Source: a virus
Lineage: Duplodnaviria > Caudoviricetes
Length of the DNA stretch: 57,321 bases
Direction: 5' to 3' (one strand)
IMG/VR virus record: IMGVR_UViG_3300037502_001747
Coordinates: 1-57,321 of that record
Shown here: positions 8,527-53,617 of the stretch, one piece after another
Layout of the letters: the number at the start of each line of letters is the position of its first letter
Numbering within the stretch: position 1 is the stretch's first letter
Notes under the pieces: model-generated
Seen by the model: only the letters and a program-made list of their open reading frames with translations
Told to the model about the DNA's origin: nothing
Databases searched by the model: none
Program-made: the position numbers and the translations under genes

Positions 8527-9223
8527 TGGTCTGGTTCTCCGTGGTGAGGGCGGCGCGGGCGATTTCGCCCATGCGAAGGACAAGGCCGCGAAGGACGTTC
8601 ACGCTGCACCCGTCGATGTGTTTTTCTGGGTCAAGCGCGTCGATGTTCTTCAACGCCCCCCGCATCGCCTCCACCTGTTCTTTCAGACTGGCGACGGTGG
8701 CCTCGGCGGCTTCGGCTCTAGCGGTCATTTCCGCCATTGCCTCTTTATGGATCGACCAAGAAAAATCAGGTTGACCATACCGCGCTGTATTCAGCTCCCG
8801 GCCAAGGCGCATGACTTCTTCCTGTAGTTTTGACGCTTGCCGCTGGTATTCATCCCGCTCCTTCTCCACCTCTGCCAGCTTGTCGGCCAAAGCCTGCGAT
8901 TTCTGCGACCAGAACCTCCATAAGTTCGACGGATCGTTTTCCTGCGCGGCGCGTTCAAGGTCTGCCAGCTTGGCCTCGGCGGCGAGTTGCGCCTCATACG
9001 CATCCTGCGCCTGACCGGATGCGGCAAGCACGTCAAGGGCAAGGTCACGCTTCTGCGCCTCCAACTCACGGATGGCGGCGATCAGGGCGGGGACGCCTGC
9101 CACGATCTGCGCGGCGTCCTCTACGTCAACCGCAGCCCAATCCTGCCAGTCGTATTTCCGCAGCCGCTTGATCGTGGTCAGCGCAGCCTCACCCTGCGCG
9201 CACAGGTCGGTGTAATTAGTCAT
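8519..9223 (-). CDS. Coiled-coil early protein (Ead/Ea22-like architecture)
   Basis: Long heptad coiled coil ending ARAALTTENQTNG. Confidence 0.65.
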   Translation of the reverse strand: MTNYTDLCAQGEAALTTIKRLRKYDWQDWAAVDVEDAAQIVAGVPALIAAIRELEAQKRDLALDVLAASGQAQDAYEAQLAAEAKLADLERAAQENDPSNLWRFWSQKSQALADKLAEVEKERDEYQRQASKLQEEVMRLGRELNTARYGQPDFSWSIHKEAMAEMTARAEAAEATVASLKEQVEAMRGALKNIDALDPEKHIDGCSVNVLRGLVLRMGEIARAALTTENQTNG

Positions 9224-9464
9224 CGCTGCTGCCCCCATTGCTGTCCGAGGAGCCGCTCACATCCCCATTATCATCAGAAGACCCCCCGTTGTGATGTCCG
9301 CCATCGCCTCCATGATCAGGTGGAAGACCATGATCCACAGCACGATCAGAACGATCCATTTCAACACAGGGGCAGTACTCCACGATGGGGTTGCAGGGGC
9401 GCAGGCACGGGTCGACGTGCGGGACGCAGGCGGCAAGGGGTAGGATCAGGAACAGGGCTTTCAT
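9216..9464 (-). CDS. Putative Cys-rich lipoprotein with G/D/S low-complexity tail
   Basis: Signal MKALFLILPLAA|C (lipobox); four more Cys; acidic tail. Confidence 0.65.
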   Translation of the reverse strand: MKALFLILPLAACVPHVDPCLRPCNPIVEYCPCVEMDRSDRAVDHGLPPDHGGDGGHHNGGSSDDNGDVSGSSDSNGGSSDD

Positions 9465-9862
9465 CAGTAGCGATCCTTCATCAGTTCTCCAGCGTCGACG
9501 TTCAGGTCGACATCAGGGATGATGCTCTGGGGCTTGAAGACGACCCTGTAGTGATAGACGCTGGCGTTGGCCGTCTCCAGCTGCTCGACGAAGTAGGTGA
9601 CGTTGTCAGAGATGCCGAGGAAGTGCTTCTTGTAGGCGTCGTGGCCCGTCTTGCAGGTCACCTCCAGCTGCACATCTGCAGCGTCCTTTTCGATGGAGCA
9701 ACGCCCCTCGATGGTCAGCATGTAGCTGTCCGTGATGCCGTTGTAGAAGACGATACGGCGGTCGATCTCGAACATGTCCGCAGCTTTGGACAGGTTGTGA
9801 GATGCCACCTGTGCGTCAGGGACGCAGGCGGCAAGGGGCAGGATCAGGATCAAGCGTTTCAT
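9464..9862 (-). CDS. Conserved phage lipoprotein (family often labelled RDF in annotations)
   Basis: MKRLILILPLAA|C lipobox; ASHNLSKAADMFEIDRRIVFYNGITDSYMLTIEGRCS...YKKHFLGISDNVTYFVEQ. Confidence 0.8.
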   Translation of the reverse strand: MKRLILILPLAACVPDAQVASHNLSKAADMFEIDRRIVFYNGITDSYMLTIEGRCSIEKDAADVQLEVTCKTGHDAYKKHFLGISDNVTYFVEQLETANASVYHYRVVFKPQSIIPDVDLNVDAGELMKDRY

Positions 9863-10329
9863 TTTTTCCACTTTCTCATCATCTCTTGTTCAGTTGTGGC
9901 TAGGGCTTGCGGGCTGGTGCTGCTCGACACTCGCACCTCAAAAATCTGCACTCCCGGCCCTGCCTTGTAGAGGGGCTTGGGCATGGGGGCATCAGCGGCG
10001 CACAGGTGTTGGTCCCGCCCGTCGAACTGCATGTAATACTGGCCCTCCGAGTGTACGCCCAACGTCGGACGAAGGTCCGGGTCAGGCTGGATCATCGGCT
10101 TGTCCACGCCGTCGCTCATGAACCTCCCCGTCACATAGGCCACGGGGTCTCCCGTCTTTAGCGCAGGTATCTGCCTAGCCATGTCCTGCCACATGCCTGT
10201 GGGTGAAGGCACTGGGGGCAGCGCTGGGGTAGGTGTAGGGACAGCGACAGGCTGGGCAGGGGCCATGCTGGGGCGGATCAACGCCGCAGCAGCAACACCA
10301 CCAAGAAAGAGGCGTCTAGTGAGTTTCAT
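9859..10329 (-). CDS. Twin-arginine (Tat) signal protein resembling the fibre lectin-like core
   Basis: MKLTRRLFLGGVAAAAL...APA Tat signal, Pro-rich linker, then WQD..P...GDPVA / Q.....RP / FDG.D motifs. Confidence 0.7.
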   Translation of the reverse strand: MKLTRRLFLGGVAAAALIRPSMAPAQPVAVPTPTPALPPVPSPTGMWQDMARQIPALKTGDPVAYVTGRFMSDGVDKPMIQPDPDLRPTLGVHSEGQYYMQFDGRDQHLCAADAPMPKPLYKAGPGVQIFEVRVSSSTSPQALATTEQEMMRKWKK

Positions 10330-10523
10330 TTGTCTGCCCATCTGCTGTGATCCGAAAAGAACTGTTCCCTGTTTCCCTCTTGGACATCCAAGGTTGGACG
10401 GCCTTTTTTGCCTGAGAACGTATCTACGCCCACGTTCATGCCCCCAATGCGTTTGTGTTCTTTCTCGCAGTGCGGGCATACTTTGGTTTGGTATGGCGTC
10501 CAGCAATAGTCACATGTTGGCAT
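10326..10523 (-). CDS. Small zinc-ribbon protein
   Basis: CDYC...CPHC. Confidence 0.6.
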   Translation of the reverse strand: MPTCDYCWTPYQTKVCPHCEKEHKRIGGMNVGVDTFSGKKGRPTLDVQEGNREQFFSDHSRWADK

Positions 10524-10524
10524 G

Positions 10525-10596
10525 TTATTTCTTCCTCGCTGGGCAGGCGCGCCCTTGATTGCAGTCGCCGTTGCAGGGTGGGCAGGTCTCAGCCAT
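10525..10596 (-). CDS. 23-aa Cys-rich micropeptide (not in ORF track)
   Basis: MAETCPPCNGDCNQGRACPARKK; fills the intergenic gap, start overlaps the upstream gene. Confidence 0.55.
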   Translation of the reverse strand: MAETCPPCNGDCNQGRACPARKK

Positions 10597-10813
10597 TTCC
10601 AAGCCCCTCCGGTCTGGGTTGCGGGCGGAGCAAGGACGACGGCAGCAATGTCTCTTCGCAGATGACGTTGTAATCGTACTGGCCATCAATGGTGGCCACG
10701 ACGGGGGAGATTGCGGCCTCGCAGGCGGAGAGGTCGCGGTAGATCAGGCCTGAAGTCGAGCCGTCGAGAGGGCCAGACAGCACTGTGATCCAGAGGACGG
10801 TCCAGTATTCCAT
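10589..10813 (-). CDS. Hypothetical membrane-associated protein
   Basis: Hydrophobic N-terminus, two Cys, C-terminal SLLRPQPRP; GAGGAG RBS. Confidence 0.7.
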   Translation of the reverse strand: MEYWTVLWITVLSGPLDGSTSGLIYRDLSACEAAISPVVATIDGQYDYNVICEETLLPSSLLRPQPRPEGLGNG

Positions 10814-22015: not shown

Positions 22016-22250
22016 GATCAAGAAGTTCTACCCGAAAGACGCTGCCAAGGACGCTGACAACGTTCTGGAGCAGGCGCTGGGGGTCTACGACGACGTCTTG
22101 CTTATTGGGTGGAACAAGGACGGCAACATGGAGGCCCGAGCGACCCTCGGGCTGAAAGACGGCGGCGATTGCCTTTGGCTGATCGAGAAGTTTAAGCACA
22201 ATCTGCTGGACGGGCGGTACTTGCCGCCTGAAATGCAAGAGGACGAGTGA
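22008..22250 (+). CDS. Hypothetical protein
   Basis: MAEIKKFYP...VLLIGWNKDG...LWLIEKFK; TGATG coupling to TerL. Confidence 0.7.
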   Translation: MAEIKKFYPKDAAKDADNVLEQALGVYDDVLLIGWNKDGNMEARATLGLKDGGDCLWLIEKFKHNLLDGRYLPPEMQEDE

Positions 22251-24529
22251 TGGCCCTCGACATCTCCTACACTCCGACCCCCACGGTCGCGAAATTCATG
22301 GATTCCAACGCCAAGATGCGCGTGATCATGGGTCCTGTCGGGTGCGTTGCACCCGAGACGCTGGTCCTTACGGAGTATGGTCCGCTTCCCATCGCGCGTA
22401 TAGATCGTCCAATGCGCGTTGTATCGTGGAACGAGAAGACATCTCGATTCCAGCTTTCTTGGTGTGGTGGAGCGTTCCCGAAAGGTACGGACTATCTATA
22501 CCGAGTGACAACGCGGCAAGGAGAATTTGCCGCAAACGAACATCACCTCGTGCTCGACGGGCAGCGTGCATATCGACGCGCTCGATCTCTGCGCCAAGGT
22601 CAGTCCTTATCCCAGTGTTCTGACGTCCGCGCGTTGATACGTTCGGCCCCCGACCTGCCAGTGTCGCATGAAGGTGATCCTGATTTGATCGGAACAGCCG
22701 TAGATTCTCTGGCGCATTATGCAGCGTCAGCCCGTCAATATGGTCTACGACTTCTGCGGGAAGAAGGTATCGACCAAGAGTTTGCCCCATCACAAGACGG
22801 TGCTCGTAGATCAGCTTACCGGTTCGGTTCGTACGCTGCCGGGCGTATGGATGGTCTTGTGGCGCAGTTACGAGCACGTACCCGTCTTGGTCTATCCTCC
22901 GCCCTGACGCGAATTGGTGATTTGCTCGGCCGGGTTGGGCACCTTCTGCTCGCCTTGGAAGGTCGAGTCGCAGCATCACCTTACGCACATAGCGGGGGGA
23001 CAGCCCCACTAGGGCTGCTATCTCCGCAGAAGTCTTCAGGCCGTCGGCCAACGCCACGATCTGTTTCGTATTCTCGTTCCACTCTCGGGGCATGTAACAT
23101 ATCCTCCAATGCCAACGGGGCCATATTGAAGGTAGAGCGCGAGACTGTCAAGCGGTCTTATTGGGACATGCAAGTACTTGATACAAACAACTACGTGACA
23201 GTGGACGGCACTATCCACCATAACAGCGGTAAGTCCGTGGCGTGCTGTTTCGAGATTGTCCGGCGGGCTGCCCAGCAGAAACCGAACGAGCAGGGCGTGC
23301 GCAAGACCCGCTGCGCTGTGGTTCGTGAGACCGTGCGCCAACTCTCGGATACCACGATCAAGACCTTCCTCGACTGGTTCCCTCCGGGGGTCTGCGGCCA
23401 CTTCATGCGCACCACCAAGACCTATTTCTTCAAGGTCGGGGATGTGGAGTGCGAGATTATGTTCCGCGCGCTGGACGACGCGGACGACGTGGCCAACCTG
23501 AACTCTCTCGAACTGACCTTCGCGTGGTTTAACGAATGCCGGGACATTCACCCCGACATCGTGGACGCGATGTCTAAGCGGGTCGGCCGATTCCCCTCCG
23601 CCAAGGATGGCGGGGCGACGTGGCATGGGATGTGGGCGGATACCAACCCGCCCACCATGGATACGTGGTGGTTCTACCAGATGGAACACATCGACCCCAA
23701 GGACGGGGTCAGCCCCAACAACAACGGGTGGGATGTCTTCAAGCAACCGTCAGGACGGAGCCCATATGCAGAGAACATCGAGAACCTACCGGAGGGATAC
23801 TATGACACCCAAGGTCGCTCGGAGGAGTACATCCGGGTTTTCATCGACGGTGACTACGGACTCTCCCTCGCAGGTACGCCGGTGTTCAAATACTTCCGCC
23901 CGGATTACCACATGGCACGTGCCACCCTTCGACCCATTATCAACGGCACTCGGCCTGTCATCGTTGGTATGGACCTTGGTCTCACGCCTGCGGCTGTGAT
24001 CGGGCAGCAGGACCCGAGGGGGCGGGCGCTCGTCATGGCGGAGGCCGTCAGCTACGACATGGGGGTGCAACGCTTCGTCAGGACGGTGCTCAAGCCCCTG
24101 CTCTTCGAACGCTTCGCGGGGGCGCCGGTCATCGTGGTGGTCGACCCGGCGGGTATCCAGAGGGCGCAGACAGACGAGCGCAGTGCGGTCGACATCATCA
24201 AGGCCGAGGGGTTCAGGGTCATGCCAGCCCGGACCAACAGCATCACGGCGCGCATCGCCGCCGTAGACGACTACCTCATGCGGCAGGTGGACGGTGACCC
24301 GGGGTTCCTAGTCGACCCCAGCTGCACGAGACTTAAAGCCGCCATGATGGGTGGGTACCGGTTTAAGAAGAATGGCGATGGGTTGGAGAAGGGTGGAGAC
24401 GCAGGTAAGCACAGCCACATCGGGGACGCCATCAGTTACCTCTGCCTGCACATTGGTAGTCTCGACAGTGGCGCGTTGATGCACCAACGCAGGGAGGTTA
24501 AGCGCATTGACTCCAAGGGGTGGACGTGA
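22250..24529 (+). CDS. terL: Terminase large subunit, intein-containing (about 465 aa after splicing)
   Basis: Walker A GPVG^SGKS is split by the intein; Walker B WFNE, DTNPP coupling motif, nuclease GMDLG, DPAG, HSHIGDA. Confidence 0.93.
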   Translation: MALDISYTPTPTVAKFMDSNAKMRVIMGPVGCVAPETLVLTEYGPLPIARIDRPMRVVSWNEKTSRFQLSWCGGAFPKGTDYLYRVTTRQGEFAANEHHLVLDGQRAYRRARSLRQGQSLSQCSDVRALIRSAPDLPVSHEGDPDLIGTAVDSLAHYAASARQYGLRLLREEGIDQEFAPSQDGARRSAYRFGSYAAGRMDGLVAQLRARTRLGLSSALTRIGDLLGRVGHLLLALEGRVAASPYAHSGGTAPLGLLSPQKSSGRRPTPRSVSYSRSTLGACNISSNANGAILKVERETVKRSYWDMQVLDTNNYVTVDGTIHHNSGKSVACCFEIVRRAAQQKPNEQGVRKTRCAVVRETVRQLSDTTIKTFLDWFPPGVCGHFMRTTKTYFFKVGDVECEIMFRALDDADDVANLNSLELTFAWFNECRDIHPDIVDAMSKRVGRFPSAKDGGATWHGMWADTNPPTMDTWWFYQMEHIDPKDGVSPNNNGWDVFKQPSGRSPYAENIENLPEGYYDTQGRSEEYIRVFIDGDYGLSLAGTPVFKYFRPDYHMARATLRPIINGTRPVIVGMDLGLTPAAVIGQQDPRGRALVMAEAVSYDMGVQRFVRTVLKPLLFERFAGAPVIVVVDPAGIQRAQTDERSAVDIIKAEGFRVMPARTNSITARIAAVDDYLMRQVDGDPGFLVDPSCTRLKAAMMGGYRFKKNGDGLEKGGDAGKHSHIGDAISYLCLHIGSLDSGALMHQRREVKRIDSKGWT
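22368..23093 (-). CDS. HTH-HNH endonuclease encoded antisense entirely inside the intein
   Basis: HTH TSAEIAALVGLSPRYVRKVM; DGYVLV...HPYA...YEHRLVM...LGRYL...EVVDHIDGLTLHNAPENLRLF; GGAGG RBS at 23107-23103. Confidence 0.88.
   Translation of the reverse strand: MPREWNENTKQIVALADGLKTSAEIAALVGLSPRYVRKVMLRLDLPRRAEGAQPGRANHQFASGRRIDQDGYVLVTAPQDHPYARQRTNRTGKLIYEHRLVMGQTLGRYLLPAEVVDHIDGLTLHNAPENLRLFRSNQDHLHATLAGRGPNVSTRGRQNTGIRTDLGAEIERVDMHAARRARGDVRLRQILLAALSLGIDSPYLSGTLHHTKKAGIEMSSRSTIQRALDDLYARWEADHTP
23123..23151 (-). promoter_or_regulatory. Putative sigma70 promoter for the intein-nested HNH
   Basis: TTGACA (23151-23146)-N17-CAATAT within intein codons. Confidence 0.55.
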
Positions 24530-25261: not shown

Positions 25262-27599
25262 CCTCCCACTGCTTAACCTCCGTCGGCGACTGCTGGGGTC
25301 CGGCGTCTCGTTTTCCCCAGTGGAGCTATTCACACTGTCAGAGCCGGGCCTTTGGCTCGACCCTTCTGACGTGGCCAACTTGGATTGGCGTCGGAACCTG
25401 CTGACGTGGACTGAGCAGTTCGATAATGCTGCTTGGACGATCTCCCGCGCAACTATTCTGGCCAATAACACCGCTGATCCGCTCGGCGGCAATACCGCAG
25501 ACCGATTTACCATCACAGCGGAAGCTGCGGGCGGCGCAATTGCATCGCAAGCGCCCGCTGTGTCTGGCGTATCTTCGACGGGCAGCGCCTATTTGAAAGC
25601 TGGCGATGCTCAATGGGCATTCTTGCGGCTGAACACCACGGAAGTCGTTTGGTTTGACCTCATCAACGGCGCAGTCGGCACGCAGACCAACGCTACCGGA
25701 ACCATCACCGCAGTAGGCAACGGGTGGTATCGCTGCACCATTTCCGGCACTCCTACCGCAAATGCCTTTGGTGTGTGTGGAGTGTGTTTTGGCAACGGCT
25801 CCACGTCATCTGGCACTATGCTGAATAAGTTCGCCTACGTCTGGGGCGCACAACTCGAACTCGGCTCCACAGCCACCGAATACCAGCGCATCACTGACGT
25901 TAACACCGAGGTGATCCAACGCTTCCCGTCTGCCACCCTTTACCAAGACACGGCAGGCACCACGCCTGTGACCACCCCCGGTCAGTCCGTTGCGCTGGCT
26001 CTTGATAAGTCCAAGGGGCTGGTGCTGGGGTCGGAGTTGATCGTAAATGGGGATTTCTCCAGCGGGACCACGGGATGGACGGGAGCAGGCTCCACACTAG
26101 CGTCAGTGTCTGGCGCTGTGCAAATCACTGCTGACGGTACTGGGCAAGCCCGAGCAAGCCAGCTTGTAACGCTTGTCGTTGGTCGTTGGTATGAAGCTAG
26201 GGCAACGATCTGGCGTGGAACTGGCTCTATCAACGTAGATTTGCTCGTATCTGGAATTGCGTCTTCTGCTAATGTCAGCAGCACAACGCCCACAGAGGTT
26301 GTTGTTAGGTTTCAAGCAACTCAGGTAAACCAGAACATCCGGGCCGGGTCTAACGGGACTGCTGTCGCGGGCACTACTTATTTTGCCGACAACATCTCCG
26401 TCAAGGAACTCCCCGGTTTCCACGCCACGCAGGCCACGGCAGGCTCCCGTCCGATCTACGGCATTGTCCCCGTCGGTGGGCGGAGGAATTTGCTGACGGC
26501 ATCTGACGATCTTGGGACTACACAATGGAACACTGCATCTAACCTTACGCGGACCGTTGGGGGCGGCGGGACTTCGTCTAGCGGCAGCGCATACACCAGA
26601 TTGACGGCAACGGCTGGCAACACTGACCACTATCTGCAAAGTGCTGGCCTAGCTCTCACTACTGGACAAACATACGCAATCTCTTTTGAGGTTCAGTATG
26701 TGAGCCACCGCTGGGTTGGCATAGCTGTATTCGATGGCGGCTATAGAAACGGGGTCACCTTTGACCTATTGAACGGTGCAGTAGGTTCAAACTTGGGTAA
26801 CTTTGTTTCCCGAACCCTCACGCCGCTAGGCTCAAATCGCTATAGGATTTCCGGCGTTTACACGGCAGTGTCTACTGGTAATGCGTTTTTTGCTATTGCC
26901 ATGCTTGATGCCGACAAGGTGTTTACAACAACGACTGTATCTAACCTCACAGCGACAATCGTTGACGCTGGTAGGGCGCAGTTTGAGGTCGGCTCCACCG
27001 CCACGGCCTACCAGAAGGTCACCACCCAATACGACGTGACCGAAGCGGGTGTGTCCTCGCTGTCCTACCTCGCGTTTGATGGTGTGGATGACTTCCTTGT
27101 GACCCCCACCATCACGCCGGGGATCGATAAGGCGCAGGTCTTCGCTGGGGTGCGGAAGCTGAGTGATGCGGCGGGGGCTGTGGCAGTGGAACTTAGCGCA
27201 GCAGTCGTAAGCAATGCGGGGGCATTTGCGATTTTTGCGCCAAGCAGTGCAGCGCCAAACTACTTGTTCAGATCACGCGGGTCTGCCGCACAAGTTGGCG
27301 CAGACTACACAAACGCCATCGTGGCGGCCCCCATTACCAACGTCATCACTGGCCTTGGTGACATCTCTGGAGACATCGCAACCCTGCGGATTAATGGCGC
27401 CCAAGCTGCTCAATCCACAACAGACCAAGGCACAGGTAATTACCTCGCCTACCCGCTCTACATCGGTCGCCGCGGCGGCACCTCCAACCCATTCAACGGT
27501 CAAATCTTCTCCCTCATCGTCCGCTTCGGCGCGAACCTGACGGCAGACCAGATCACCTCCACGGAGACGTGGGTCAACGGTAAAACGCGAGCGTATTGA
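25251..27599 (+). CDS. Fibre/spike protein with LamG/ConA-like core and inserted carbohydrate-binding modules
   Basis: Thr/Gly-rich; two RRNLL...FDL.NGAVG...AQ.E.GSTAT.YQ repeats; ELIVNGDFS...DNISVKE module. Confidence 0.8.
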   Translation: MGFNLPLLNLRRRLLGSGVSFSPVELFTLSEPGLWLDPSDVANLDWRRNLLTWTEQFDNAAWTISRATILANNTADPLGGNTADRFTITAEAAGGAIASQAPAVSGVSSTGSAYLKAGDAQWAFLRLNTTEVVWFDLINGAVGTQTNATGTITAVGNGWYRCTISGTPTANAFGVCGVCFGNGSTSSGTMLNKFAYVWGAQLELGSTATEYQRITDVNTEVIQRFPSATLYQDTAGTTPVTTPGQSVALALDKSKGLVLGSELIVNGDFSSGTTGWTGAGSTLASVSGAVQITADGTGQARASQLVTLVVGRWYEARATIWRGTGSINVDLLVSGIASSANVSSTTPTEVVVRFQATQVNQNIRAGSNGTAVAGTTYFADNISVKELPGFHATQATAGSRPIYGIVPVGGRRNLLTASDDLGTTQWNTASNLTRTVGGGGTSSSGSAYTRLTATAGNTDHYLQSAGLALTTGQTYAISFEVQYVSHRWVGIAVFDGGYRNGVTFDLLNGAVGSNLGNFVSRTLTPLGSNRYRISGVYTAVSTGNAFFAIAMLDADKVFTTTTVSNLTATIVDAGRAQFEVGSTATAYQKVTTQYDVTEAGVSSLSYLAFDGVDDFLVTPTITPGIDKAQVFAGVRKLSDAAGAVAVELSAAVVSNAGAFAIFAPSSAAPNYLFRSRGSAAQVGADYTNAIVAAPITNVITGLGDISGDIATLRINGAQAAQSTTDQGTGNYLAYPLYIGRRGGTSNPFNGQIFSLIVRFGANLTADQITSTETWVNGKTRAY

Positions 27600-36700: not shown

Positions 36701-38008
36701 ATGGTAGTCAAACTAAGCAACAACGTCCGGTCATCGCTCCGCACGGAGGTGTTGTCTGGTAGTACGACCATCCTTTTGCCCGTCGGCCACGGTGCTCGGT
36801 TCCCGGCGCTTGGCGCGGGTGAGTACTTCTATGCCACCATCGAGGACGCGGCTGGCAACTACGAGATCGTGCGGGTCACTGCCCGGGCGACGGACACGCT
36901 GACTGCAACACGCGGCGCCGAGGGCACGACGGCGCGGACCTTTGCTGCTGGGTCCACTATCGAGATGCGGGTTACTGCTGCCAGCGTTCTGGACGCCGCA
37001 CAAGATGCTGCCGACACGGTGGACTTGGCGCAGTTCAGCGTCACTGCTTCCGCGGCAGAGATCAACATCCTAGACGGGGCGTTGCTGAGCACGGCCGAAC
37101 TCAACATCCTTGACGGGGTGACTGCCTCCACTGCGGAGATTAACATCCTTGACGGGGTGACCGCCTCGACCGCGGAGATCAATATCCTCGACGGGGTTAC
37201 CGCCTCGACCGCAGAGATTAACATCCTTGACGGGGTGACGGCGACGACGGCTGAGATTAACAAGCTGGCCGGTACACCGGCAGGTTTGACGGCAACCGAG
37301 CTCGGTTACGTTGACGGGGTGACTAGCTCTATCCAGACGCAGTTGGATGCCAAGCAGGCGCTTGACTCTGATCTGACAGCACTCGCTGGCCTTTCGGCTA
37401 ATGGTATCATCGCCCGCACGGGGGCGGGAACTGCTGCAGTGCGCACACTTACTGGTACAGCCAACCAGATAACTGTAACGGACGGCGACGGTGTGGCTGG
37501 CAACCCTACCATTGCGGCGGTCGTGGCATCTCAAGCCGAGGCACAGGCCGGCACTGATACTACTAAGCTGATGACACCTCAGCGTGTGCTTCAGTCAATC
37601 ACTGCAAACTCTACTGTGTTGCTTTCGACGCTGACCACGGTCACTGGCAACACCTACACCACGCCCACTTTGGACCTGACTCCGTACAAGTTTGTCACGG
37701 CAGTTGTTGATGGTGTTGGCGACAACTCTGCTACTTCTGGGACGTTCAATATTTTTGGCCTAGGTCTCGTTGCTACTGGGACAACGGCTGCTTTTAGGAT
37801 TTATGGAAGCTGGACGCTTGATCTTCAGACGGGTCTTTTTTTCGGGGTGTCACAGGTCATCACCCCAGCGGCTCTTCCACAACTGCTTTTTGCTCTAGTT
37901 AACAGCGGCGGAAGAACTGCCCTTGGCAATGCGACCACCACCTTCACTGTGACAATGACTACGACAAACTTTGCCGCTGGCACTGTTCGCTTCTACGGAG
38001 TTAGGTGA
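36701..38008 (+). CDS. Tail fibre protein
   Basis: EIVRVTARATDTLTATRGAEGTTAR N-terminal anchor; 13-aa shaft repeats; KLMTPQRV. Confidence 0.8.
   Translation: MVVKLSNNVRSSLRTEVLSGSTTILLPVGHGARFPALGAGEYFYATIEDAAGNYEIVRVTARATDTLTATRGAEGTTARTFAAGSTIEMRVTAASVLDAAQDAADTVDLAQFSVTASAAEINILDGALLSTAELNILDGVTASTAEINILDGVTASTAEINILDGVTASTAEINILDGVTATTAEINKLAGTPAGLTATELGYVDGVTSSIQTQLDAKQALDSDLTALAGLSANGIIARTGAGTAAVRTLTGTANQITVTDGDGVAGNPTIAAVVASQAEAQAGTDTTKLMTPQRVLQSITANSTVLLSTLTTVTGNTYTTPTLDLTPYKFVTAVVDGVGDNSATSGTFNIFGLGLVATGTTAAFRIYGSWTLDLQTGLFFGVSQVITPAALPQLLFALVNSGGRTALGNATTTFTVTMTTTNFAAGTVRFYGVR
37043..37267 (+). repeat. About 5.8 copies of a 39-bp tandem repeat (TASTAEINILDGV)
   Basis: Units start at 37043, 37082, 37121, 37160, 37199 and 37238, diverged mostly at synonymous sites. 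Confidence 0.9.
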
Positions 38009-38009
38009 C

Positions 38010-38303
38010 ATGGCTGACGATCAGCGCTTCGACCGCATTGAGAAAAACCTCGATAAACTCGGGGACAAGATCGACGAGTTAACCAAGGTCGTGACGGCCA
38101 TGGCCCGCATTGAGGAGCGGATGGTGACGCTGTTTAAGCGCATGGATCGGTACGACGAGGCGCAGTCGGAAATCGACGAGCGTCTTGCCGAGGTCGAGAA
38201 GACCTCTACCAAGCGTGGCGTCGTCTACCACATAATCGACAAGGGCTTCTGGCTCATCGTTGGCGCGGGCATGACCTACATCATCAAGACCACTGGTGGC
38301 TGA
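38010..38303 (+). CDS. Coiled-coil protein with C-terminal TM (lysis-associated)
   Basis: RFDRIEKNLDKL...FWLIVGAGMTYII. Confidence 0.7.
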   Translation: MADDQRFDRIEKNLDKLGDKIDELTKVVTAMARIEERMVTLFKRMDRYDEAQSEIDERLAEVEKTSTKRGVVYHIIDKGFWLIVGAGMTYIIKTTGG

Positions 38304-38715
38304 CATGCGGCAGTGGGACCAGCGGAGCCTAAAGAACCTGCAAGGCGTTCGCCCCGAGCTCCGCCGAGTCATGGACCGTGCACTGCAGGACGCCCCGTTC
38401 CCGTTCATCATCACCGAGGGCCTACGCACCATTGAGCGGCAGCGGGAGCTTGTCCGAATCGGCGCGTCGAAGACCCTGAACAGCCGCCACCTGACGGGCC
38501 ATGCCGTGGACCTCGTGCCCTATGTGGACATCGACAAGGACGGTAAGGTCGAGTCGGAAGAGATGTATGCGTGGCCGCTGTATCACAAGCTGGCTGTCGT
38601 GATTAAGGCTGCCGCAGACAAGGAAGACGTCGCCATCGTATGGGGCGGCGACTGGGTGAAGTTCCGTGATGGACCTCACTGGGAACTGGACCGCCGGGTC
38701 TATCCGGCAAAGTAG
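38296..38715 (+). CDS. Endolysin, M15-family peptidase
   Basis: ITEGLRT..RQ, SRHLTGHAVDL, WGGDW, DGPHWEL. Confidence 0.9.
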   Translation: MADMRQWDQRSLKNLQGVRPELRRVMDRALQDAPFPFIITEGLRTIERQRELVRIGASKTLNSRHLTGHAVDLVPYVDIDKDGKVESEEMYAWPLYHKLAVVIKAAADKEDVAIVWGGDWVKFRDGPHWELDRRVYPAK

Positions 38716-38724
38716 GAGACTGCC

Positions 38725-38895
38725 ATGACTGGTGATCAGATCGCAGGCGTCGTTCGCGCCATCGTTGCCGCCCTCGGCGGGTACTTTGTGGGTCAGGGTG
38801 TCACTGACGCCGAAACCGTTGCGACCGTCGGCGGCGCCGCTGCCACTCTCGCCGCTGCACTGTGGTCGATCTACTCCAAGCGCGCCAAAGAATGA
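38725..38895 (+). CDS. Putative two-TM holin (not in ORF track)
   Basis: MTGDQIAGVVRAIVAALGGYFVG...AAALWSIYSKRAKE; AGGAG RBS. Confidence 0.75.
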   Translation: MTGDQIAGVVRAIVAALGGYFVGQGVTDAETVATVGGAAATLAAALWSIYSKRAKE

Positions 38896-39131
38896 TCTGG
38901 CAGGCGTTTTTCTCCGCCCTCCTGCGGCCGGTTCTTCATGCTCTCTCGCTGGCAACAAGCTGGTTTGGTGGCAGAAAATCGGCGCAGGCTGACATCAAAC
39001 TGGCCACCGTCGAGCGATCCCTGAGGGTTGTTCGACGCGCAGAGGAGATCGAGAATGAGGTCGAAGCTCTTGATCGTGAGTCTCTCAAGTCTCGTAGCCG
39101 TCGCTGGGTGCGTGGCGTCAACGACAAGTGA
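38892..39131 (+). CDS. Putative i-spanin (Rz-like)
   Basis: Hydrophobic N-terminus plus coiled coil; ATGA overlap. Confidence 0.6.
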   Translation: MIWQAFFSALLRPVLHALSLATSWFGGRKSAQADIKLATVERSLRVVRRAEEIENEVEALDRESLKSRSRRWVRGVNDK

Positions 39132-39258
39132 GTGCGACTGGACTGAAACGCTATACTACGGCAGCGACAACGTGGTAGACTGGTTGGCAGCGAACGATCC
39201 CTCGCTGTTGGCGGGTGTAACGTCGCACAACGAGAAGCGGATGGAGTTCTGCAAATGA
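39055..39258 (+). CDS. Putative o-spanin (Rz1-like lipoprotein)
   Basis: MRSKLLIVSLSSLVAVAG|C lipobox; overlaps the i-spanin in another frame; GAGGAG RBS. Confidence 0.65.
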   Translation: MRSKLLIVSLSSLVAVAGCVASTTSECDWTETLYYGSDNVVDWLAANDPSLLAGVTSHNEKRMEFCK

Positions 39259-46225: not shown

Positions 46226-49200
46226 ATGGCAGATCGCGGACTCTCCTTCACCAACCCGCTGTTCGACTCCATGAACGCCGGGTTGCGAACTCCTGTCGGC
46301 ATTGCCGCTGGCGCACCGTCCAACTCCATCGGGCTTGGCAACCTTGCCCCCAACCGCGCGGACACTGCGGTGCAAGGGGAGCGGGCGGTACCCGGTGGTA
46401 CTGCAAGGCGTGCACTCCAAGCCCTGTCGGCTCCGCCTGCGGCGACTGCGCAGCAGTTCTTCTACCCGGAGACCGGGCAGATTTACTCCGGCGGTCGGTT
46501 GTTCAATCGGGACGATGCGACGTCTGCGTTTGCAGCGCCTCTCGCAGAAGCACCGCCGCCCCCGCCGGGTGGCGTGCCGTTGTCGGCCGAGTCCTATGGG
46601 CGGTACCTGCAGTCGTTCGGTGAGCGCCGGACTACTGGTGAATTGTTAGGGCTGGGCGTTCGGCAGGCGGCCGAGGGGCTTATCGGTGGCGTGGGGGCTG
46701 GGCTTGAACTGGCTGGCGCAACTGAGGTTGGCCCCGCCATTCGTGGGTTCGCGCAGGAAGCCTTTGGTCAGACCGAGAACGAACAGTTGCGGTCGGCGCT
46801 GATCGCCGAGAACAGCACCATGTGGGAGCGCGTCGTCGACGCCTCCATCCAGAGTGGCCCCACTCTGGTGTCCATCATCGGGACCGGTGGTCTTGTCGGT
46901 GCGGGGCTTCGTGCTGTGGGTGCGGGTGCTGCCATGGCTACGGCCGGGGCTACTGCTGGTGCAACTGGTGCCAGCTTCCCCATGCACCTGTCCTCGTTCT
47001 ACGACGCGGCGGAGCGCAACGGCTTCGACCTGACCGATCCGAAGGTTAAGACCGAGATCGTCGGCGGCGCAGTGGCCAACACGCTTCTGGATACGTTCGG
47101 CCCGGGGATGATCTTCTCCACCGCCTTCCGCCGACTGGCAGGCGAGGTTGGTGGGCAGGTCGCTCGTGGTGCACTGAAGAACGCAGCCATTGGTGCTGGC
47201 CGCATCGGGTTCACTGAAGCCCTGACGGAAGGTACCCAGACGCTGCTTGAGTCCGTGGTCTTCGACCCGGAAGTGCGGAGCACGCTGGCGGTTAACGACC
47301 TCAAGCTACTCGCGCCGATGATCGCGGAGAAATACGGCGAGGACATCCTCGTCTCTATGGGTGCGGGTGCCATCCTTGGTGGTGGTGTCGGCGGTGTGGT
47401 TAGCGCACGCGCCACGCCCGGCCCGCAAGAACTCCCGGCTGACAAGCCGGTCGACCTGACCCAGCAAGGGGTTGAGCCTGAAGCCCCGGCCGCACAGCCT
47501 GAAGTCCCAGCCGCAACTGGGCCGCTTGCGCTGCCGTACATCCCGGGTGCCGAGACTATCGGTGCGCGGCCGCGCGATCTGCCGTATATCCCCGTCGCAC
47601 CGATGGGGCCGGAGCAGGTAATTGATCCCAACCGCCCGCTGACACTCCAGCAAGTTGGGCTTATGCGGGGTGCAACTCGGGGCCTGCGCCCCGAAGATCG
47701 TGCCGCTGGCAACATCACTGTGCCGAGCGGTGAGCGTGCGGTCACGCTTGAGGGTGAGGTCCTGCCCCCGGAGACCATGGCTGCTGCACCGCAGGCTGCC
47801 CGCCTGCGTACTCTTGGTGCCCCGGCTGCTGCACCGCAACTGACCCCGCCCGGGACTGGGGCGGCGGACTTCACTGCTGGTCCGGAAGGTGTCGCTCCCA
47901 CCGGCGCTGCTCCCGCTGCGGCTCCTGCCGCTGCTCCCGTTACTCCGGGTGCGCAGCTTCGTGTTGGTGCTGCGCCGCGTCCCGGCATCCTGCCCGCTCC
48001 CCCGCAGGGGGCTATGGCCGACCGGTTGCGCGCGGCTATGGCTGCACGGCAAGAAGCCGAAGCACGGCGTCAGGCGGAAACCACTGCGCAGGAAGCTGCG
48101 ACCCGGGCCGCACAAGAGGTGGCACGGCAACGCGCCACACAGGTCGAAGAAGCCTATGCACAGCGGGAAGCCCAGCGCGCCACGATGTACAGCGCGGAGC
48201 AACAGGCAGCTTATGACCAGCTGACGGCTGAACAGAAAGCCTACGTCGACGCCGACACGGTGTGGGAACAGTTCCGTCCCGAGCAGAGTGGTGTCACTCT
48301 CCGTGACCTTGCGCCCAAGGCGCAGCGCGAGTGGGTCGCTGCCGTCCAGCGGGGCACCGCTGATCAGGCGTTGTACCAGAAGCTGCGCAACCGCCGCCCG
48401 GTGGGCAAGGCAGCCCCTCTCGTGGATGTACCCACGATCCTGCAGGCTGCGCCTGAACCTGAGATGACACCGCCGGAGCCGACGCCGCCCAAGCCCACTG
48501 GTAAGGCCAAGGTCCAGCGCAAAGCCGCTGAGCCCAAGGCGCCCAAGCCGCTCAAGGTGCCCAAAGAAACCCAGCCCTCGGCGGGTAAGCCCCGGGCGGA
48601 GGCAGTCACTGTCGAGTCGACCAAGCGGTCGCCTCGTGGTGCAGAGCCGCACAGGATAGTCACGCTGTCAGATGGGCGCGTCATTCGCATCAAGCACACC
48701 GGCGACAAGTTCGCCGGCTCGTGGACTTTCCTCAAGACTGGCGACGTTATCGGAGAAGGGATCAAGGCCGACGATGCGGCCGCGCGCGTGGCGGAACTCG
48801 CCTCGCAGGGTCAACTCTCCGATGCCGTCGTAGACACTGAGCAGGAGGTGGCGGCTGAGCCGACCAAGCTGAGCGTGGTCGAGGAACTTGAGGCCGACAT
48901 CAACGACTTCATCACGGTGCTTGAGTCTTCCACGGATAAGTTCGACCGCCACGCTGCGATCAGTGGGTTGCAGGATGCTCTAATCGACCCGTCCATCACG
49001 CCTAAACTGCGGACGCGGGTGAAGGACTACCTTGCTGAACTGGGCCCCGAAGTTGCGGCCGGTGATCTGAACGCCAAGACTGACGTCAACACTGCCACTG
49101 CGCAGCTGACGCTTATGATCGAAGACTTCAACGCTGCCCCCGGCGATGTCACCCGCACGTGGCAAGATCAGTTCCGTCGTCTGGTTGCCGCAGTGCGCAA

Positions 49201-52200
49201 GGAAGACCCGGGGGCTCGCTTCGGCGATCGTGGCCTGCTGACCTTCGCCAAGGCCAATGGTGACCCCAACTTCGCGCGAGTGGATGGGGTGCGGCAGATC
49301 GTCGGTGCCCCCGGCGGCTTCTCACTCGCCGACTGGAACACCATCGACGGGGTCGTGGACCTCGACGGTAGGCCGGTCACCCCGGTTGCACCCGGTCGCG
49401 TGCAGCTTCTGGCGCGCAACTTCGCAGCAAAGCTGGCGCGGGCACCCAAGATCACCGTCGTTCGCAACCAAGCTGACCTCAAGGCCAAGAACCCGCAGCT
49501 TTACGCCCGGGCAGTGGCAGCCCGCCCGCAGGGTGACTTCGATACTGCAGCCGCCATGGGGTACTCCTTTGGTGATGGGCAAGTCATCATCTTCTCTGAC
49601 CGGATCGGCACGGAACAACAGCTTCGCTTCGTCCTCGCCCACGAGACGATGGGCCACTACGGCCTGCGTGGCATCATGCCGGGTCCGAAGTTCGACGCTC
49701 TGATGGAGACGTTGTACACAGGCGACAGCCGCATTCAGCGCGCAGTCGACGCCGCGATGGCGGTCCGGCCGGGCATGTCCCGGGCCGAAGCCGTGGAAGA
49801 ATACTTGTCAGACTATGCCGCTGTGCTGGAGACGAGCATCGTCGCCCGCATCTGGAATGCCATCAAGGGTGCACTCAACAAGCTGGGCATCACCACTGGC
49901 GACGAGATGGTGCGCTACCTCCTAGACCAAGCCCGTCGGTACGCGCGTGATGGTAAGGGTGTGACCTTCGACGCCGGGGCAGTTGCTGCCCGTCTGCACA
50001 GTGTCGAGACCTCTGGTGACACAGGGCGCTTTGCTATCGGTGGGTCGCTGCGCGACGTCAACACTGTGGCCGGAACGATGCGGGACACCGTCGGTGGTAT
50101 GCCGATGAGCATCGAGGAAGGCTGGCGATTTCTACAAGGTCAGGGCGTTAATTCTGTCGATACTTGGGACCGGTTCAAGGCCAAGTTCTTGAGCCTTGCG
50201 AACTTCCGGGCGCGGCAGAACCCCGGGCTGGCAGCCCTCGAAGAACTGATGGACGAAGCCCGCAACATCTCCATGTCGCTCAAGGTTGGGTTCAACGAAG
50301 AACTCCAGCTGGTGCTTAACCGCGCCATTGCGGGCGAGGTCGGTGGTATCTCGGATGCCCAGACTGACCGGATCAACAAGATGCTCTACGCAGCGCAGCG
50401 GTTCAACGTGGCGGCGCTTCGCAACCAGCCTGACCTTGGCAACGTGCCGCTGTTCCGCTCCGAGGGTGGACGGCTGGTCCCCAACCAGCCCGAGGTTGAC
50501 CGCCTGCGCCGCATGGGTCGCCGGACCTTCGCGCAGATGCGTGATGGCTTCGAGTACCAAGTCTCCTATGAGGAGGCGGGCAAGACTGTCACCAAGACGG
50601 AACGCTTCGCCGGGTTCCCTGACCTCAAGGAGACCAGCAACGAGTGGCGTGGGTACCTCAAGGTACGTGACGCCATGGATAAGATCGAACTGGAGTTGCT
50701 GCGTGCGCGCTATGAGGGCGCGCTCCAAGAGCGTGATCTGGCATTCCGCCAGATTGCTGCCACTGTCCCCGAGGGGGAACTCAGCACGGCAGAACGCGCA
50801 GCACTGACCCAGCTGGCCGAGACCTACGGTCGGCTCTACACCAGCGACGTCACGCAGGACGAGACCGGCCGCGCAGTGCTTAACCCGAGATACCAGACCT
50901 ACGCCAACGATGTCCTGCGCACCACCAATGCCGCTCTCCTTGGCAAGGGGGACGACCGCTTCGATGCGCTGCGCACACTGCTGACCAGCCCGCGGGGGTT
51001 CACCACTGGTGAGGGGGATGCTACTAAGGTCGTAGATTCCCTGCCTGCAGCCATGGACGCACAGGCGGCTGACGATCTGATCGCGCAACTCAAGCAGTTC
51101 AAGACCCGGATGCGCATCGGCGAAGATCGCTTCGTGGTGCAGAACAAGATCAAGCAGATCATCCTGTCCGAGTTGGCAAGTAAGGACGCTGACAAGTACA
51201 CCAAGCGGACGATCGCCACGGGCTACACCCCGGTGCTGCGTGAGGGCAAGTTCCAAGTCCGGGTTGAGGCCACGGTGGGTGACCGCCCGGTGCGTCTGCA
51301 GGACAACTATCGGGAGCAACTGGTCTACTCGCAGGTGGATACTCCGGCCGAGGCGCTTGAATTGGCCAACAAGATCAATGGCACCTTCGGCGACACCGAG
51401 TTCGAGGTCATGGCCTACGACCAAGAGGCTGGTGAGTACCGGCTCCGCAAGGTTAAACTCAAGGCTGTGTCCGAGAGCGCACTCGACGCTGTGGCTGCGC
51501 CGCCTGAACTGAACCTCAACGAGTTCATCCGTGGCCTGCGGCAGTTCGATATCGCCCTCACGCCCGACAAGATGGAAGACATCGTCGTCGCCCTGACCAA
51601 GCAGAACAGCGCAGCACGTAACAGGCTGGAGCGTGCCTTCGTTCCCGGGGCTGACCTTGACGGCGTCATGGCCACCATGCGCCACATCGAGAGCCGTGCC
51701 TCTACCATCGCCAAGGTCATCATGCGGCCGCGTCTGGCCGAACTGATGGACCGCAGCATGGAGTCCACGCAGCGGCTGTGGAACGGGGATGCGGACACTC
51801 TGGCCAAACTCAAAGCCCGGGCCGAGTCGCTTGCTGCCAATCAGACAGCGACCAAGGAGGAGATCGCCGACGCGCAGCGGAAGTACGAGCAGTACGCCTA
51901 CATGTACGAGCAGACTAACCCGCAGGGCAAACCGCGCCGCGCGAACCAGTTCTACAACGAGGCAGCCAGCACCGTCGCTTTCCTTGACGGCAACAAGAAC
52001 GTGGACGAGTCGGACTTCGGCTCTGGCCCGGTCGTCTCGGCGGTGCGCGCCGCCACTTCCATGATGCAACTCGGCGGCTCCGTGGCCACGGGTGCGCTCA
52101 ACGTGCTCAGCGTCTACACCAACGGCATCCCGTACCTGTCCAGCTATAACCCGAAGACCGCCTTCGGCGGTGGGTTCGCTGTGGGTAAGGTGGTGACGGA

Positions 52201-53617
52201 ACTGCACCGCGCAGCCGCGCAGGTAGGCGGGCCGGGGATCACCAGTGGTGCGATGAACACCGCTGAGTTCTACGACAAGATTGCCACCGACCGGGCACTG
52301 CAGGACCGGTACGGCCTGAAGCCGCACGAGGCGCGGTTCATCGCACAGGAAATCCGGGACGGGGCCATGATCCCGGCCCAGTCCAACGCACTGGTGGGTA
52401 CCGCCCGTGGCCGCACGACCAAGGGATGGCAACAGAAGTTCCTCGACGGGTGGATGTGGACGTTCAACGTCACGGAGCAGGCATCGCGCCGCTCTCTGGG
52501 TCTGACTGCTTACCGGTTGGAGTACGCCCGCAGGCTGGAGGCTGGGGCCAGTGAGAAGGATGCGGCCGCTGCTGCGCGCAAGTTCGCTGTTCAGGCGCTG
52601 CAGTACACCATGGGTGAGTACTCCGTCCTCAACCGTCCGCCAGCGTGGCGCTCGGGCATTCAGTCGTTCATCTACATGTACAAGGTGTTCCCCACCACGT
52701 CTGTCCAGATGTTCATGAACATGTCCCGTGGCGGCAAGGTCGGTATGCTGACCGCACTCTGGCTGCTCAGCGGTCTGGCTGGTCTGCCCTTCGCCGAAGA
52801 CATCGAAGACCTCGTGGATACACTGGCACAGAAGCTGAAGGTGCCCGGCTGGCAGGGTGCACGGTACGAGACCGCGCAGTTCATCGACAGCATCTTCCCC
52901 GGCATGTCTCCGATCTTCCTCAAGGGGATCGTCAACCAAGCTGTCCCGGCCGACGTAGCTGGCCGCACCTCTCTTGGCGACTTGCTGCCCGGAACCGATA
53001 TCTTGTTGGCCGGAAGCGACGTGGCTCGTAGCATCTCGGAGATCGCCGGTCCTGCACCATCCATGCTGCTGGGCACCGCCCAGTTCGCCACCGACATCAT
53101 CGCCGCTCCGTTCTCCAAGGCTGTCACTGCGGAGGATGTTCTGCGCGAGGCGCCGGTCACGATGCTGCGCGCGACGGCGGATGCCTACGCCTACATCCAG
53201 AGCGGGGCAGTGGTGGATCGCCGTGGCTACATCGTGACCGACGACATGTCGGCATCGACCGTCATTGCGCGGGCACTTGGGTTCTACCCGTCCGCAGCAG
53301 CGGCGCAGTACGACACGATCCGGGCTGCCAAGCGCATGACCGACTACCAGCGTGAGGTCGTCACGGCGTACCGTACTGCATGGGTCAAGGCCATGATGCG
53401 CAACGACCGTGAAGGGGCGCGGGAGATCGAGGCTGCCGTCGAAGAGTGGAACAAGTCCGCCGCTGGCACGGCACTGGAGATCAACAACTTCGTGAAGAAC
53501 TCGCGCCGTACCCTCGGGGAAGCGCGACGCCCAGCGATGGAGCGGACCTTGCGGGCCGCACCTGATGCCGCTGAGCGTGATCTTCAGAACATGGTCGATC
53601 TGCTGACGGCGAACTAG
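46226..53617 (+). CDS. Giant internal virion/ejection protein (2463 aa) with zincin-like motif and PLxRFG-like region
   Basis: LAHETMGHYGLR...AVEEY; YTPVLREGKF; last gene of the structural arm. Confidence 0.8.
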   Translation: MADRGLSFTNPLFDSMNAGLRTPVGIAAGAPSNSIGLGNLAPNRADTAVQGERAVPGGTARRALQALSAPPAATAQQFFYPETGQIYSGGRLFNRDDATSAFAAPLAEAPPPPPGGVPLSAESYGRYLQSFGERRTTGELLGLGVRQAAEGLIGGVGAGLELAGATEVGPAIRGFAQEAFGQTENEQLRSALIAENSTMWERVVDASIQSGPTLVSIIGTGGLVGAGLRAVGAGAAMATAGATAGATGASFPMHLSSFYDAAERNGFDLTDPKVKTEIVGGAVANTLLDTFGPGMIFSTAFRRLAGEVGGQVARGALKNAAIGAGRIGFTEALTEGTQTLLESVVFDPEVRSTLAVNDLKLLAPMIAEKYGEDILVSMGAGAILGGGVGGVVSARATPGPQELPADKPVDLTQQGVEPEAPAAQPEVPAATGPLALPYIPGAETIGARPRDLPYIPVAPMGPEQVIDPNRPLTLQQVGLMRGATRGLRPEDRAAGNITVPSGERAVTLEGEVLPPETMAAAPQAARLRTLGAPAAAPQLTPPGTGAADFTAGPEGVAPTGAAPAAAPAAAPVTPGAQLRVGAAPRPGILPAPPQGAMADRLRAAMAARQEAEARRQAETTAQEAATRAAQEVARQRATQVEEAYAQREAQRATMYSAEQQAAYDQLTAEQKAYVDADTVWEQFRPEQSGVTLRDLAPKAQREWVAAVQRGTADQALYQKLRNRRPVGKAAPLVDVPTILQAAPEPEMTPPEPTPPKPTGKAKVQRKAAEPKAPKPLKVPKETQPSAGKPRAEAVTVESTKRSPRGAEPHRIVTLSDGRVIRIKHTGDKFAGSWTFLKTGDVIGEGIKADDAAARVAELASQGQLSDAVVDTEQEVAAEPTKLSVVEELEADINDFITVLESSTDKFDRHAAISGLQDALIDPSITPKLRTRVKDYLAELGPEVAAGDLNAKTDVNTATAQLTLMIEDFNAAPGDVTRTWQDQFRRLVAAVRKEDPGARFGDRGLLTFAKANGDPNFARVDGVRQIVGAPGGFSLADWNTIDGVVDLDGRPVTPVAPGRVQLLARNFAAKLARAPKITVVRNQADLKAKNPQLYARAVAARPQGDFDTAAAMGYSFGDGQVIIFSDRIGTEQQLRFVLAHETMGHYGLRGIMPGPKFDALMETLYTGDSRIQRAVDAAMAVRPGMSRAEAVEEYLSDYAAVLETSIVARIWNAIKGALNKLGITTGDEMVRYLLDQARRYARDGKGVTFDAGAVAARLHSVETSGDTGRFAIGGSLRDVNTVAGTMRDTVGGMPMSIEEGWRFLQGQGVNSVDTWDRFKAKFLSLANFRARQNPGLAALEELMDEARNISMSLKVGFNEELQLVLNRAIAGEVGGISDAQTDRINKMLYAAQRFNVAALRNQPDLGNVPLFRSEGGRLVPNQPEVDRLRRMGRRTFAQMRDGFEYQVSYEEAGKTVTKTERFAGFPDLKETSNEWRGYLKVRDAMDKIELELLRARYEGALQERDLAFRQIAATVPEGELSTAERAALTQLAETYGRLYTSDVTQDETGRAVLNPRYQTYANDVLRTTNAALLGKGDDRFDALRTLLTSPRGFTTGEGDATKVVDSLPAAMDAQAADDLIAQLKQFKTRMRIGEDRFVVQNKIKQIILSELASKDADKYTKRTIATGYTPVLREGKFQVRVEATVGDRPVRLQDNYREQLVYSQVDTPAEALELANKINGTFGDTEFEVMAYDQEAGEYRLRKVKLKAVSESALDAVAAPPELNLNEFIRGLRQFDIALTPDKMEDIVVALTKQNSAARNRLERAFVPGADLDGVMATMRHIESRASTIAKVIMRPRLAELMDRSMESTQRLWNGDADTLAKLKARAESLAANQTATKEEIADAQRKYEQYAYMYEQTNPQGKPRRANQFYNEAASTVAFLDGNKNVDESDFGSGPVVSAVRAATSMMQLGGSVATGALNVLSVYTNGIPYLSSYNPKTAFGGGFAVGKVVTELHRAAAQVGGPGITSGAMNTAEFYDKIATDRALQDRYGLKPHEARFIAQEIRDGAMIPAQSNALVGTARGRTTKGWQQKFLDGWMWTFNVTEQASRRSLGLTAYRLEYARRLEAGASEKDAAAAARKFAVQALQYTMGEYSVLNRPPAWRSGIQSFIYMYKVFPTTSVQMFMNMSRGGKVGMLTALWLLSGLAGLPFAEDIEDLVDTLAQKLKVPGWQGARYETAQFIDSIFPGMSPIFLKGIVNQAVPADVAGRTSLGDLLPGTDILLAGSDVARSISEIAGPAPSMLLGTAQFATDIIAAPFSKAVTAEDVLREAPVTMLRATADAYAYIQSGAVVDRRGYIVTDDMSASTVIARALGFYPSAAAAQYDTIRAAKRMTDYQREVVTAYRTAWVKAMMRNDREGAREIEAAVEEWNKSAAGTALEINNFVKNSRRTLGEARRPAMERTLRAAPDAAERDLQNMVDLLTAN

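Follow-up and report, generated by a model that had tools for sequence, protein, structure and literature searches.

A phage protein with a putative twin-arginine signal and a module shared with LamG-like fibre domains

Small superinfection-exclusion proteins targeted to the envelope are encoded by several phages, among them Sp and Imm of T4, Llp of T5 and SieA of P22. Truncated envelope proteins of endogenous retroviruses give receptor interference. Proteins exported by the Tat system carry the consensus (S/T)-R-R-x-F-L-K near the N-terminus. In the literature searched we found neither a Tat-exported nor a fibre-derived phage exclusion factor, nor a phage-encoded Tat substrate of the kind described below; T4 Imm and Sp are mentioned in PMC13128918.

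We analysed one stretch of DNA, referred to as the window, a viral record that is complete at 57,321 bp, has direct terminal repeats and contains 60.5% G+C. Its minus-strand block encodes a helicase, a family-A DNA polymerase, an HNH endonuclease and an ATPase, and its plus-strand virion block encodes a portal, a major head protein, a T7-type tail-fibre N-terminus, an internal virion protein and a protein of 2,463 aa. The portal shares 36% identity with its counterpart in Rhizobium phage RHph_TM3_14A and about 27% with the portals of HMO-2011-type roseophages and pelagiphages, values that place the phage, by sequence comparison, as an uncultured podovirus distantly related to both; its host is probably an alphaproteobacterium.

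Two further features of the virion block were recorded. Pfam and PHROG terminase matches to the 760-aa large terminase start only at about residue 326; its N-terminus contains 'GPVGC' followed by about 300 residues without a match, and an insertion in the ATPase motif, for instance an intein, may account for this stretch, which matched no intein family. The 2,463-aa ORF, which closes the block, had no match in the Pfam search, and only its last ~500 residues match PHROG families, whose function is not assigned (phrog_11358, 1.5e-39).

The gene and its twin-arginine-type N-terminus

The gene under study lies on the minus strand and encodes a protein of 156 aa, here called P0001 (Table 1). The sequence-only reading had described an open reading frame with MKLTRRLFLGG...APA, a Pro-rich stretch and three blocks in that order, and the translation bears out this layout. 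We found 20 homologues with 54-91% identity and lengths of 86-167 aa, mostly 145-160 aa, and farther relatives, about 150-170 aa long, in which the layout is unchanged (P0023, P0024, P0026 and P0030). The linker varies in length and sequence between homologues, and the tail (residues 114-156) is conserved inside the family.

The codon-position pattern of the gene is coding-like, residues 1-45 included. Compared with the homologue in the related locus L003, 35 of the 102 codons of the mature part have changed synonymously and 21 non-synonymously, and the first 39 aligned codons differ at 10, 4 and 18 places in codon positions 1, 2 and 3, respectively. The JGI gene call starts at M46 (111 aa) and leaves the signal out. 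Since third-position changes prevail both in residues 1-45 and in the mature part, the start is best supported at the ATG at 10329. The P0001 gene is real, conserved and under selection.

No named family was found that covers P0001. The Pfam search gave no match and no known enzymatic or binding domain was detected; the best PHROG match was to a family of unknown function at E 0.17. No similarity to exclusion or defence proteins was found (PADLOC, 0 families), tblastn against 50,697 GenBank phage records gave no match, and none of the 118 pattern matches from a scan of 185,579 species genomes was confirmed.

The N-terminus, taken as twin-arginine-type in the sequence-only reading, has the parts of such a signal: a T-R-R-x-F-L motif, a 12-residue Gly/Ala-rich hydrophobic core, a basic residue and A-P-A, after which QP follows. 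Residues 4-10, TRRLFLG, fit the twin-arginine motif. R5, R6 and F8 are invariant in all 24 aligned family sequences, down to 30% identity, while the residues around them vary, and this assignment was upheld. P0001 itself was not matched by the curated Tat models, neither by Pfam TAT_signal at E <= 1 nor by NCBIfam TIGR01409 at E <= 10. TIGR01409 matches two of the 24 family members (best E 0.0015), and among four proteins to which it was applied the distant small relative P0043 scored 18.1 bits (cut-off 16.7) and P0039 14.7 bits. Cleavage is predicted after APA, before Q26. The motif and its conservation suggest that P0001 is quite probably exported by the Tat system and cleaved.

Table 1. Features discussed in the text, numbered on the window
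Feature	Position	Strand	Remarks
P0001 gene	9859..10329	-	156-aa ORF and translation; stop codon included
Signal, residues 1-25	10255..10329	-	MKLTRRLFLGGVAAAALIRPSMAPA; APA before Q26
Proline-rich linker, residues 26-44	10198..10254	-	QPVAVPTPTPALPPVPSPT
'WQD..RP..FDG' module, residues 45-113	9991..10197	-	profile homology to the N-terminal piece of the fibre domain
Family-specific tail, residues 114-156	9862..9990	-	predicted helix 140-155 at the end
65-aa CxxC..CxxC protein, upstream	10326..10523	-	TGA overlaps the P0001 ATG (ATGA)
74-aa protein	10589..10813	-	hydrophobic N-terminus, two conserved Cys; relatives in L002 and L012
Lipoprotein-signal protein, PF25682 (Phage_VG64)/phrog_478	9464..9862	-	Pfam 4.1e-54, PHROG 1.1e-53
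Small lipoprotein	9216..9464	-	MKALFLILPLAAC...; LAAC lipobox; Asp/His/Gly/Ser-rich tail
Hydrophobic ORF embedded in the small lipoprotein gene	9257..9436	-	45-59 aa
Large terminase	22247..24529	+	760 aa
Fibre-like protein P0002	25251..27599	+	782 aa; phrog_5939 tail protein, 1.1e-19
P0002 conserved blocks	25938..25994, 26430..26462, 27066..27098	+	hmmsearch placement, six-frame matches
P0002 LamG-like core	~26997..27596	+	Laminin_G_3 22.2 bits, below the 27.6 cut-off
Lysis cassette	37971..39258	+	away from P0001
XhlA/hemolysin-like membrane protein	in 37971..39258	+	110 aa
M15 peptidase endolysin	38296..38715	+	phrog_465, 4.7e-52
76-aa lipoprotein, candidate spanin	39028..39258	+	weak Rz-like match, E 0.005
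2,463-aa ORF	46226..53617	+	closes the virion block

Relationship to the fibre-type domain

P0002 is a putative virion fibre, as indicated by its phrog_5939 match, a CBM_4_9 match (26.2 bits) and the similarity of its first insert to annotated tail-fibre proteins of RcapMu and others. Three conserved blocks of P0001 had been described as collinear with it, namely P0001 residues 46-64 against fibre residues 230-248 (7/19 identical), 81-91 against 394-404 (QPDPDLRPTLG vs QATAGSRPIYG, 4/11) and 99-109 against 606-616 (YMQFDGRDQHL vs YLAFDGVDDFL, 6/11), and they are as described. The blocks are held apart in the fibre by inserted modules, on which hmmsearch (residues 205-254 at 22.1 bits, 6e-9; 16-44 at 4.5 bits; 391-431 at 0 bits) and the family alignment agree with the sequence-only reading; the three inserts are jelly-roll modules, and the split architecture of the phage's own fibre holds.

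Some details of this architecture were observed separately. The N-terminal conserved pieces of P0002 (residues 16-44, 230-254 and 391-405) are kept apart by the three beta-rich inserts; inserts 1 and 3 are paralogous, starting with 'RRNLLT.TE.FDNA.W' and ending with 'WGAQLE.GS.AT.YQ', and insert 2 is the CBM_4_9 module. Few columns of the 36-sequence family are as invariant as those of the short linking blocks. None of three related records searched, one of which is a 30% fragment, carried the P0002 fibre.

At the pairwise level the three-block likeness is not above chance. BLASTP of P0001 against its own fibre gave nothing significant (E >= 5.7), and the best collinear triple of ungapped windows, 18 identities in 41, was reached by 26 of 300 shuffles of the mature sequence. 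Profiles nevertheless establish the homology. An exhaustive HMM search with the P0001 family alignment (A1) yielded 61 proteins at E <= 1e-3, including at least one that looks spurious (the repeat protein P0025), and many of them are large proteins in which the match is confined to profile positions 43-114, such as P0027 (1,879 aa, E 1.6e-13) and P0028 (875 aa, E 4.8e-12). In the large proteins inspected, the matched segment reads contiguously 'WQD..G.PV..Q..RP..YL.FDG.DD' and opens each LamG-like domain.

With an alignment of 11 contiguous fibre-domain proteins (A2), the P0001 family gave an hhalign probability of 99.4 and E 4.3e-21, P0001 residues ~41-113 aligning to the first ~75 positions of the LamG-like fibre domain; by hmmsearch P0001 scored 80.3 bits, covering the N-terminal extension and the first core strand. 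A2 in turn matched residues 552-782 of the own fibre (probability 98.9, E 4e-17). The 11 proteins of A2 were chosen among the P0001-family matches themselves, so an independent fibre family (A5) was built from a fibre-only search, which gave 1,915 proteins at E <= 1e-5 among 8,000 scored, 36 of them being aligned. When the inserts were cut out by script, A1 against A5 gave E 3.7e-4 over 66 columns and the three blocks alone gave 1.4e-5; the insert-free score was 31.4, compared with a maximum of 21.4 in 100 controls made from random insert segments. hhalign of A1 against the single fibre and against A5 with its inserts placed blocks 3 and 1 on top at E only 0.12-0.13, block 1 leading at 0.13 in the comparison with A5, and block 2, which by itself is not significant, draws its support from its collinear position.

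When the whole genome was searched in six frames, the domain profile matched at three places only, the fibre core, P0001 (9991-10311, E 1.2e-23) and fibre block 1. The profile comparison with the fibre family, which had been put forward as a check on the three blocks, thus came out significant, and by the profile evidence the fibre likeness of P0001 is confirmed at the family level.

Descent from the phage's own fibre, which the sequence-only reading had also proposed, was not borne out. None of the 61 matches has the length of that fibre (782 aa, or 742 in the gene call), and the best large matches are contiguous modules in other proteins (P0027 and P0028); P0001 thus branched off the domain family long ago and is no recent fragment of the fibre gene. 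A scan of viral contigs with the distant small relatives (A4) returned full-length fibre-type proteins only. In a viral contig of 67.6 kb (L006, 2408..4684, plus strand) we observed a 758-aa protein whose last domain opens with the WQD module and whose N-terminal part looks by eye like a spike-type beta-helix.

The C-terminal part of the domain had been reported as missing, which is correct: 43 residues follow the FDG strand in P0001 vs ~165 in the fibre, and these fibre residues have no counterpart in P0001. We considered that the tail might correspond to the closing strand and helix of that domain, so that P0001 would be a 'collapsed' domain, and rejected this; nowhere in the fibre did the tail find a significant match (best E 0.42-0.73), and the places matched are inconsistent. 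P0001 lacks the complete beta-sandwich core (~150 residues after FDG) of PF13385. The Pfam Laminin_G_3 model starts in the relatives at about the FDG strand and the retained piece of P0001 is N-terminal to that core; what P0001 retains is therefore the extension ahead of the core plus the first strand, without the sandwich. It would thereby be without most of the sandwich expected to carry the ligand site, so a fibre-like ligand specificity is doubtful.

The AF2 model of P0001 (24 sequences) places residues 41-110 at pLDDT 88-94, with means of 45 for residues 21-30 and 69 for 31-40; confidence is poor for the signal and for the tail (51-67). The model consists mostly of short strands with no coiled coil. 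Foldseek of this model against the PDB gave no match at E <= 0.001, and sequence profiles of P0001 against the PDB gave nothing below E 0.4. Against BFVD, parts of large phage proteins were matched at weak E values of 0.0035-0.1, those for the module (rmsd 2.1 over 57-68 columns) lying at 0.04-0.09. Atlas results, which serve as leads only, comprised a feature match (score 0.88) to a cluster with PF13385 in 64% of members and structure rows with TM 0.55-0.58 to LamG-containing clusters. The AF2 model of the fibre has four beta-rich domains and a C-terminal helix, and its PDB matches are arrays of jelly-roll/CBM domains and two phage fibre entries. Blocks 1-2 are low-confidence linkers in it (pLDDT < 50 for residues 206-258), so the fibre model does not show the blocks meeting as a shared folded module.

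Neighbouring genes and related loci

The P0001 gene lies within the replication-gene block, among genes for small membrane proteins and lipoproteins and outside the virion module. ATGA overlaps, which are signs of an operon, join it to both neighbours, the downstream one being the PF25682 gene, whose ATG overlaps the P0001 TGA. Co-orientation with the replication genes suggests early expression of P0001; a promoter scan of the sequence was at chance level (4 found vs 3.8 expected).

An identical copy of the upstream 65-aa CxxC protein precedes the homologue in L002, and neither this protein nor the 74-aa protein had a family match. Across the window and six related loci, the upstream genes encode small zinc-ribbon, hydrophobic or two-Cys proteins that differ by locus. 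In the window and in five related loci (L002, L003, L004, L011 and L012), P0001 or its homologue is followed, directly or after one gene, by a LAAC lipoprotein with a Pro/Asp/His-rich tail; the available sequence of L005, the sixth locus, stops short of that place. In L003 and L004 this lipoprotein has a long Pro-rich stretch.

The PF25682 gene, for which a LAAC lipobox was read from the sequence, intervenes in the window only and is absent at the corresponding place in the related loci. Its signal, MKRLILILPLAACVP, hardly differs from the one in the following gene, MKALFLILPLAACVP; this likeness and the absence together suggest an insertion event in which the signal was duplicated. For a lipoprotein, the PHROG label 'recombination directionality factor' is an ill-suited description. 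The hydrophobic ORF embedded in the putative small lipoprotein gene has a GC3 of 0.75 vs 0.60, and either frame, or both, may be expressed; the pair is also present in L002, L011 and L012, and fewer amino-acid changes were seen by reading in the embedded frame.

Proposed role and comparison with known systems

We suggest, at a probability of roughly 0.45, that P0001 is an exported accessory protein built on a fibre module that protects the infected cell. It would combine the Tat signal and the proline-rich linker with a LamG-like N-terminal module of ~70 residues and a family-specific tail of ~40 residues with a helix. P0001 would fold in the cytoplasm, be exported by the host Tat system with cleavage after APA, and act in the periplasm or envelope together with the neighbouring small membrane proteins and lipoproteins; the infected cell would be protected from further phages by binding of an envelope component or of an entering virion part. 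Action in the envelope is likely, held with slightly less assurance than the export itself, and a role in exclusion or receptor interference, the likeliest of the single roles, is as such offered as a tentative and rather unlikely assignment. The fullest version, in which a lytic phage took the N-terminal sub-domain of a fibre domain, added a Tat signal, and exports the folded product to the periplasm to bind a receptor precursor or the envelope partner touched by the fibre modules of related phages, so that relatives arriving later are shut out, appears improbable.

The signal and the envelope-gene context speak equally for an exported P0001 without any part in exclusion, namely a periplasmic factor with a glycan, a peptidoglycan component or a neighbouring lipoprotein as its ligand, which during infection remodels or stabilises the envelope or tunes the timing of lysis. 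This possibility, somewhat unlikely in our estimate, gains from the carbohydrate-binding type of the domain family, as seen in the sub-threshold Laminin_G_3 matches of relatives and the Atlas PF13385 cluster (lead only), and it is weakened by the separate lysis cassette with its own lipoprotein, by the missing enzymatic or known binding domain and by the absence of most of the sandwich.

P0001 might instead stay in the cytoplasm, the arginine pair being incidental or serving another use, and assist fibre assembly or act as a dominant-negative fragment against a co-infecting phage. The failure of the curated Tat models on P0001 and the module common to P0001 and fibre proteins agree with this, and interference with tail assembly by bacterial defence systems is on record (PMC11364771). 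We nevertheless consider it quite improbable, as the RR and F are invariant while the remaining N-terminus varies, an n/h/c layout with a basic residue and A-x-A stands ahead of the mature part, the distant small relatives score as Tat signals, and the gene lies among membrane-protein and lipoprotein genes, not in the virion module.

The adjoining and overlapping lipoprotein genes, and the long Pro-rich stretch of the L003 and L004 lipoprotein, would also suit a spanin-like lysis component, P0001 being the inner-membrane-anchored partner of the downstream proline-rich lipoprotein. The grouping of the endolysin, the XhlA-like protein and the lipoprotein with the weak Rz-like match in a cassette elsewhere argues against such a role, the 12-residue hydrophobic stretch is too short for a membrane anchor and the model is mostly short strands and not a coiled coil; P0001 thus has neither the lysis-cassette location nor the membrane anchor nor the coiled coil of Rz/Rz1-type spanins, and we regard this as very improbable. 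That P0001 is a decaying, functionless remnant of a fibre gene, as its truncated form of a larger domain could suggest, is hardly credible for a gene that is full-length in 20 homologues, keeps its layout in the four farther relatives, changes mainly at third positions and has had a signal peptide added.

If P0001 is exported and acts in the envelope, as the accessory-protein reading proposes, phages would be seen to recycle pieces of their own attachment machinery as secreted accessory factors and to use the Tat route for folded proteins in doing so, and neither point was found described in the literature searched. Protection by such a protein, if true, would parallel in bacterial viruses the receptor interference exerted by truncated envelope proteins, and P0001 would be the first exclusion factor both derived from an attachment protein and exported by Tat. 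At present its value is that of a well-defined, testable candidate rather than a discovery. The 'WQD..RP..FDG' segment is an unnamed module found ahead of the LamG-like core in over a thousand fibre proteins; whole domains can be inserted into it, and it is useful for annotating the fibres of uncultured phages.

Compared with the LamG-like (concanavalin-A-like, PF13385-type) distal domains of phage fibres and spikes, P0001 keeps the invariant W-Q-D, P, G, P-V, Q, R-P and F-D-G, whereas it has a signal peptide, no fibre shaft or attachment part and a tail unlike the core, and Pfam gives it no score. It shares with Tat-exported bacterial proteins the T-R-R-x-F-L motif, the Gly/Ala-rich core, the basic residue and A-x-A, and differs from them in being phage-encoded, without a cofactor-binding domain and missed by the curated models. 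Retroviral receptor interference belongs to another biological system, and the piece retained in P0001 is not the part expected to bind a receptor; the likeness lies in the idea only, that a cut-down attachment protein made in the cell blocks related viruses. T4 Sp and Imm, T5 Llp and P22 SieA have no sequence or profile similarity to P0001, which in contrast uses a Tat-type and not a Sec or lipoprotein signal and is derived from a fibre-domain module; like them, P0001 is a small phage protein whose destination is probably the envelope and whose gene lies with variable accessory genes, away from the virion module.
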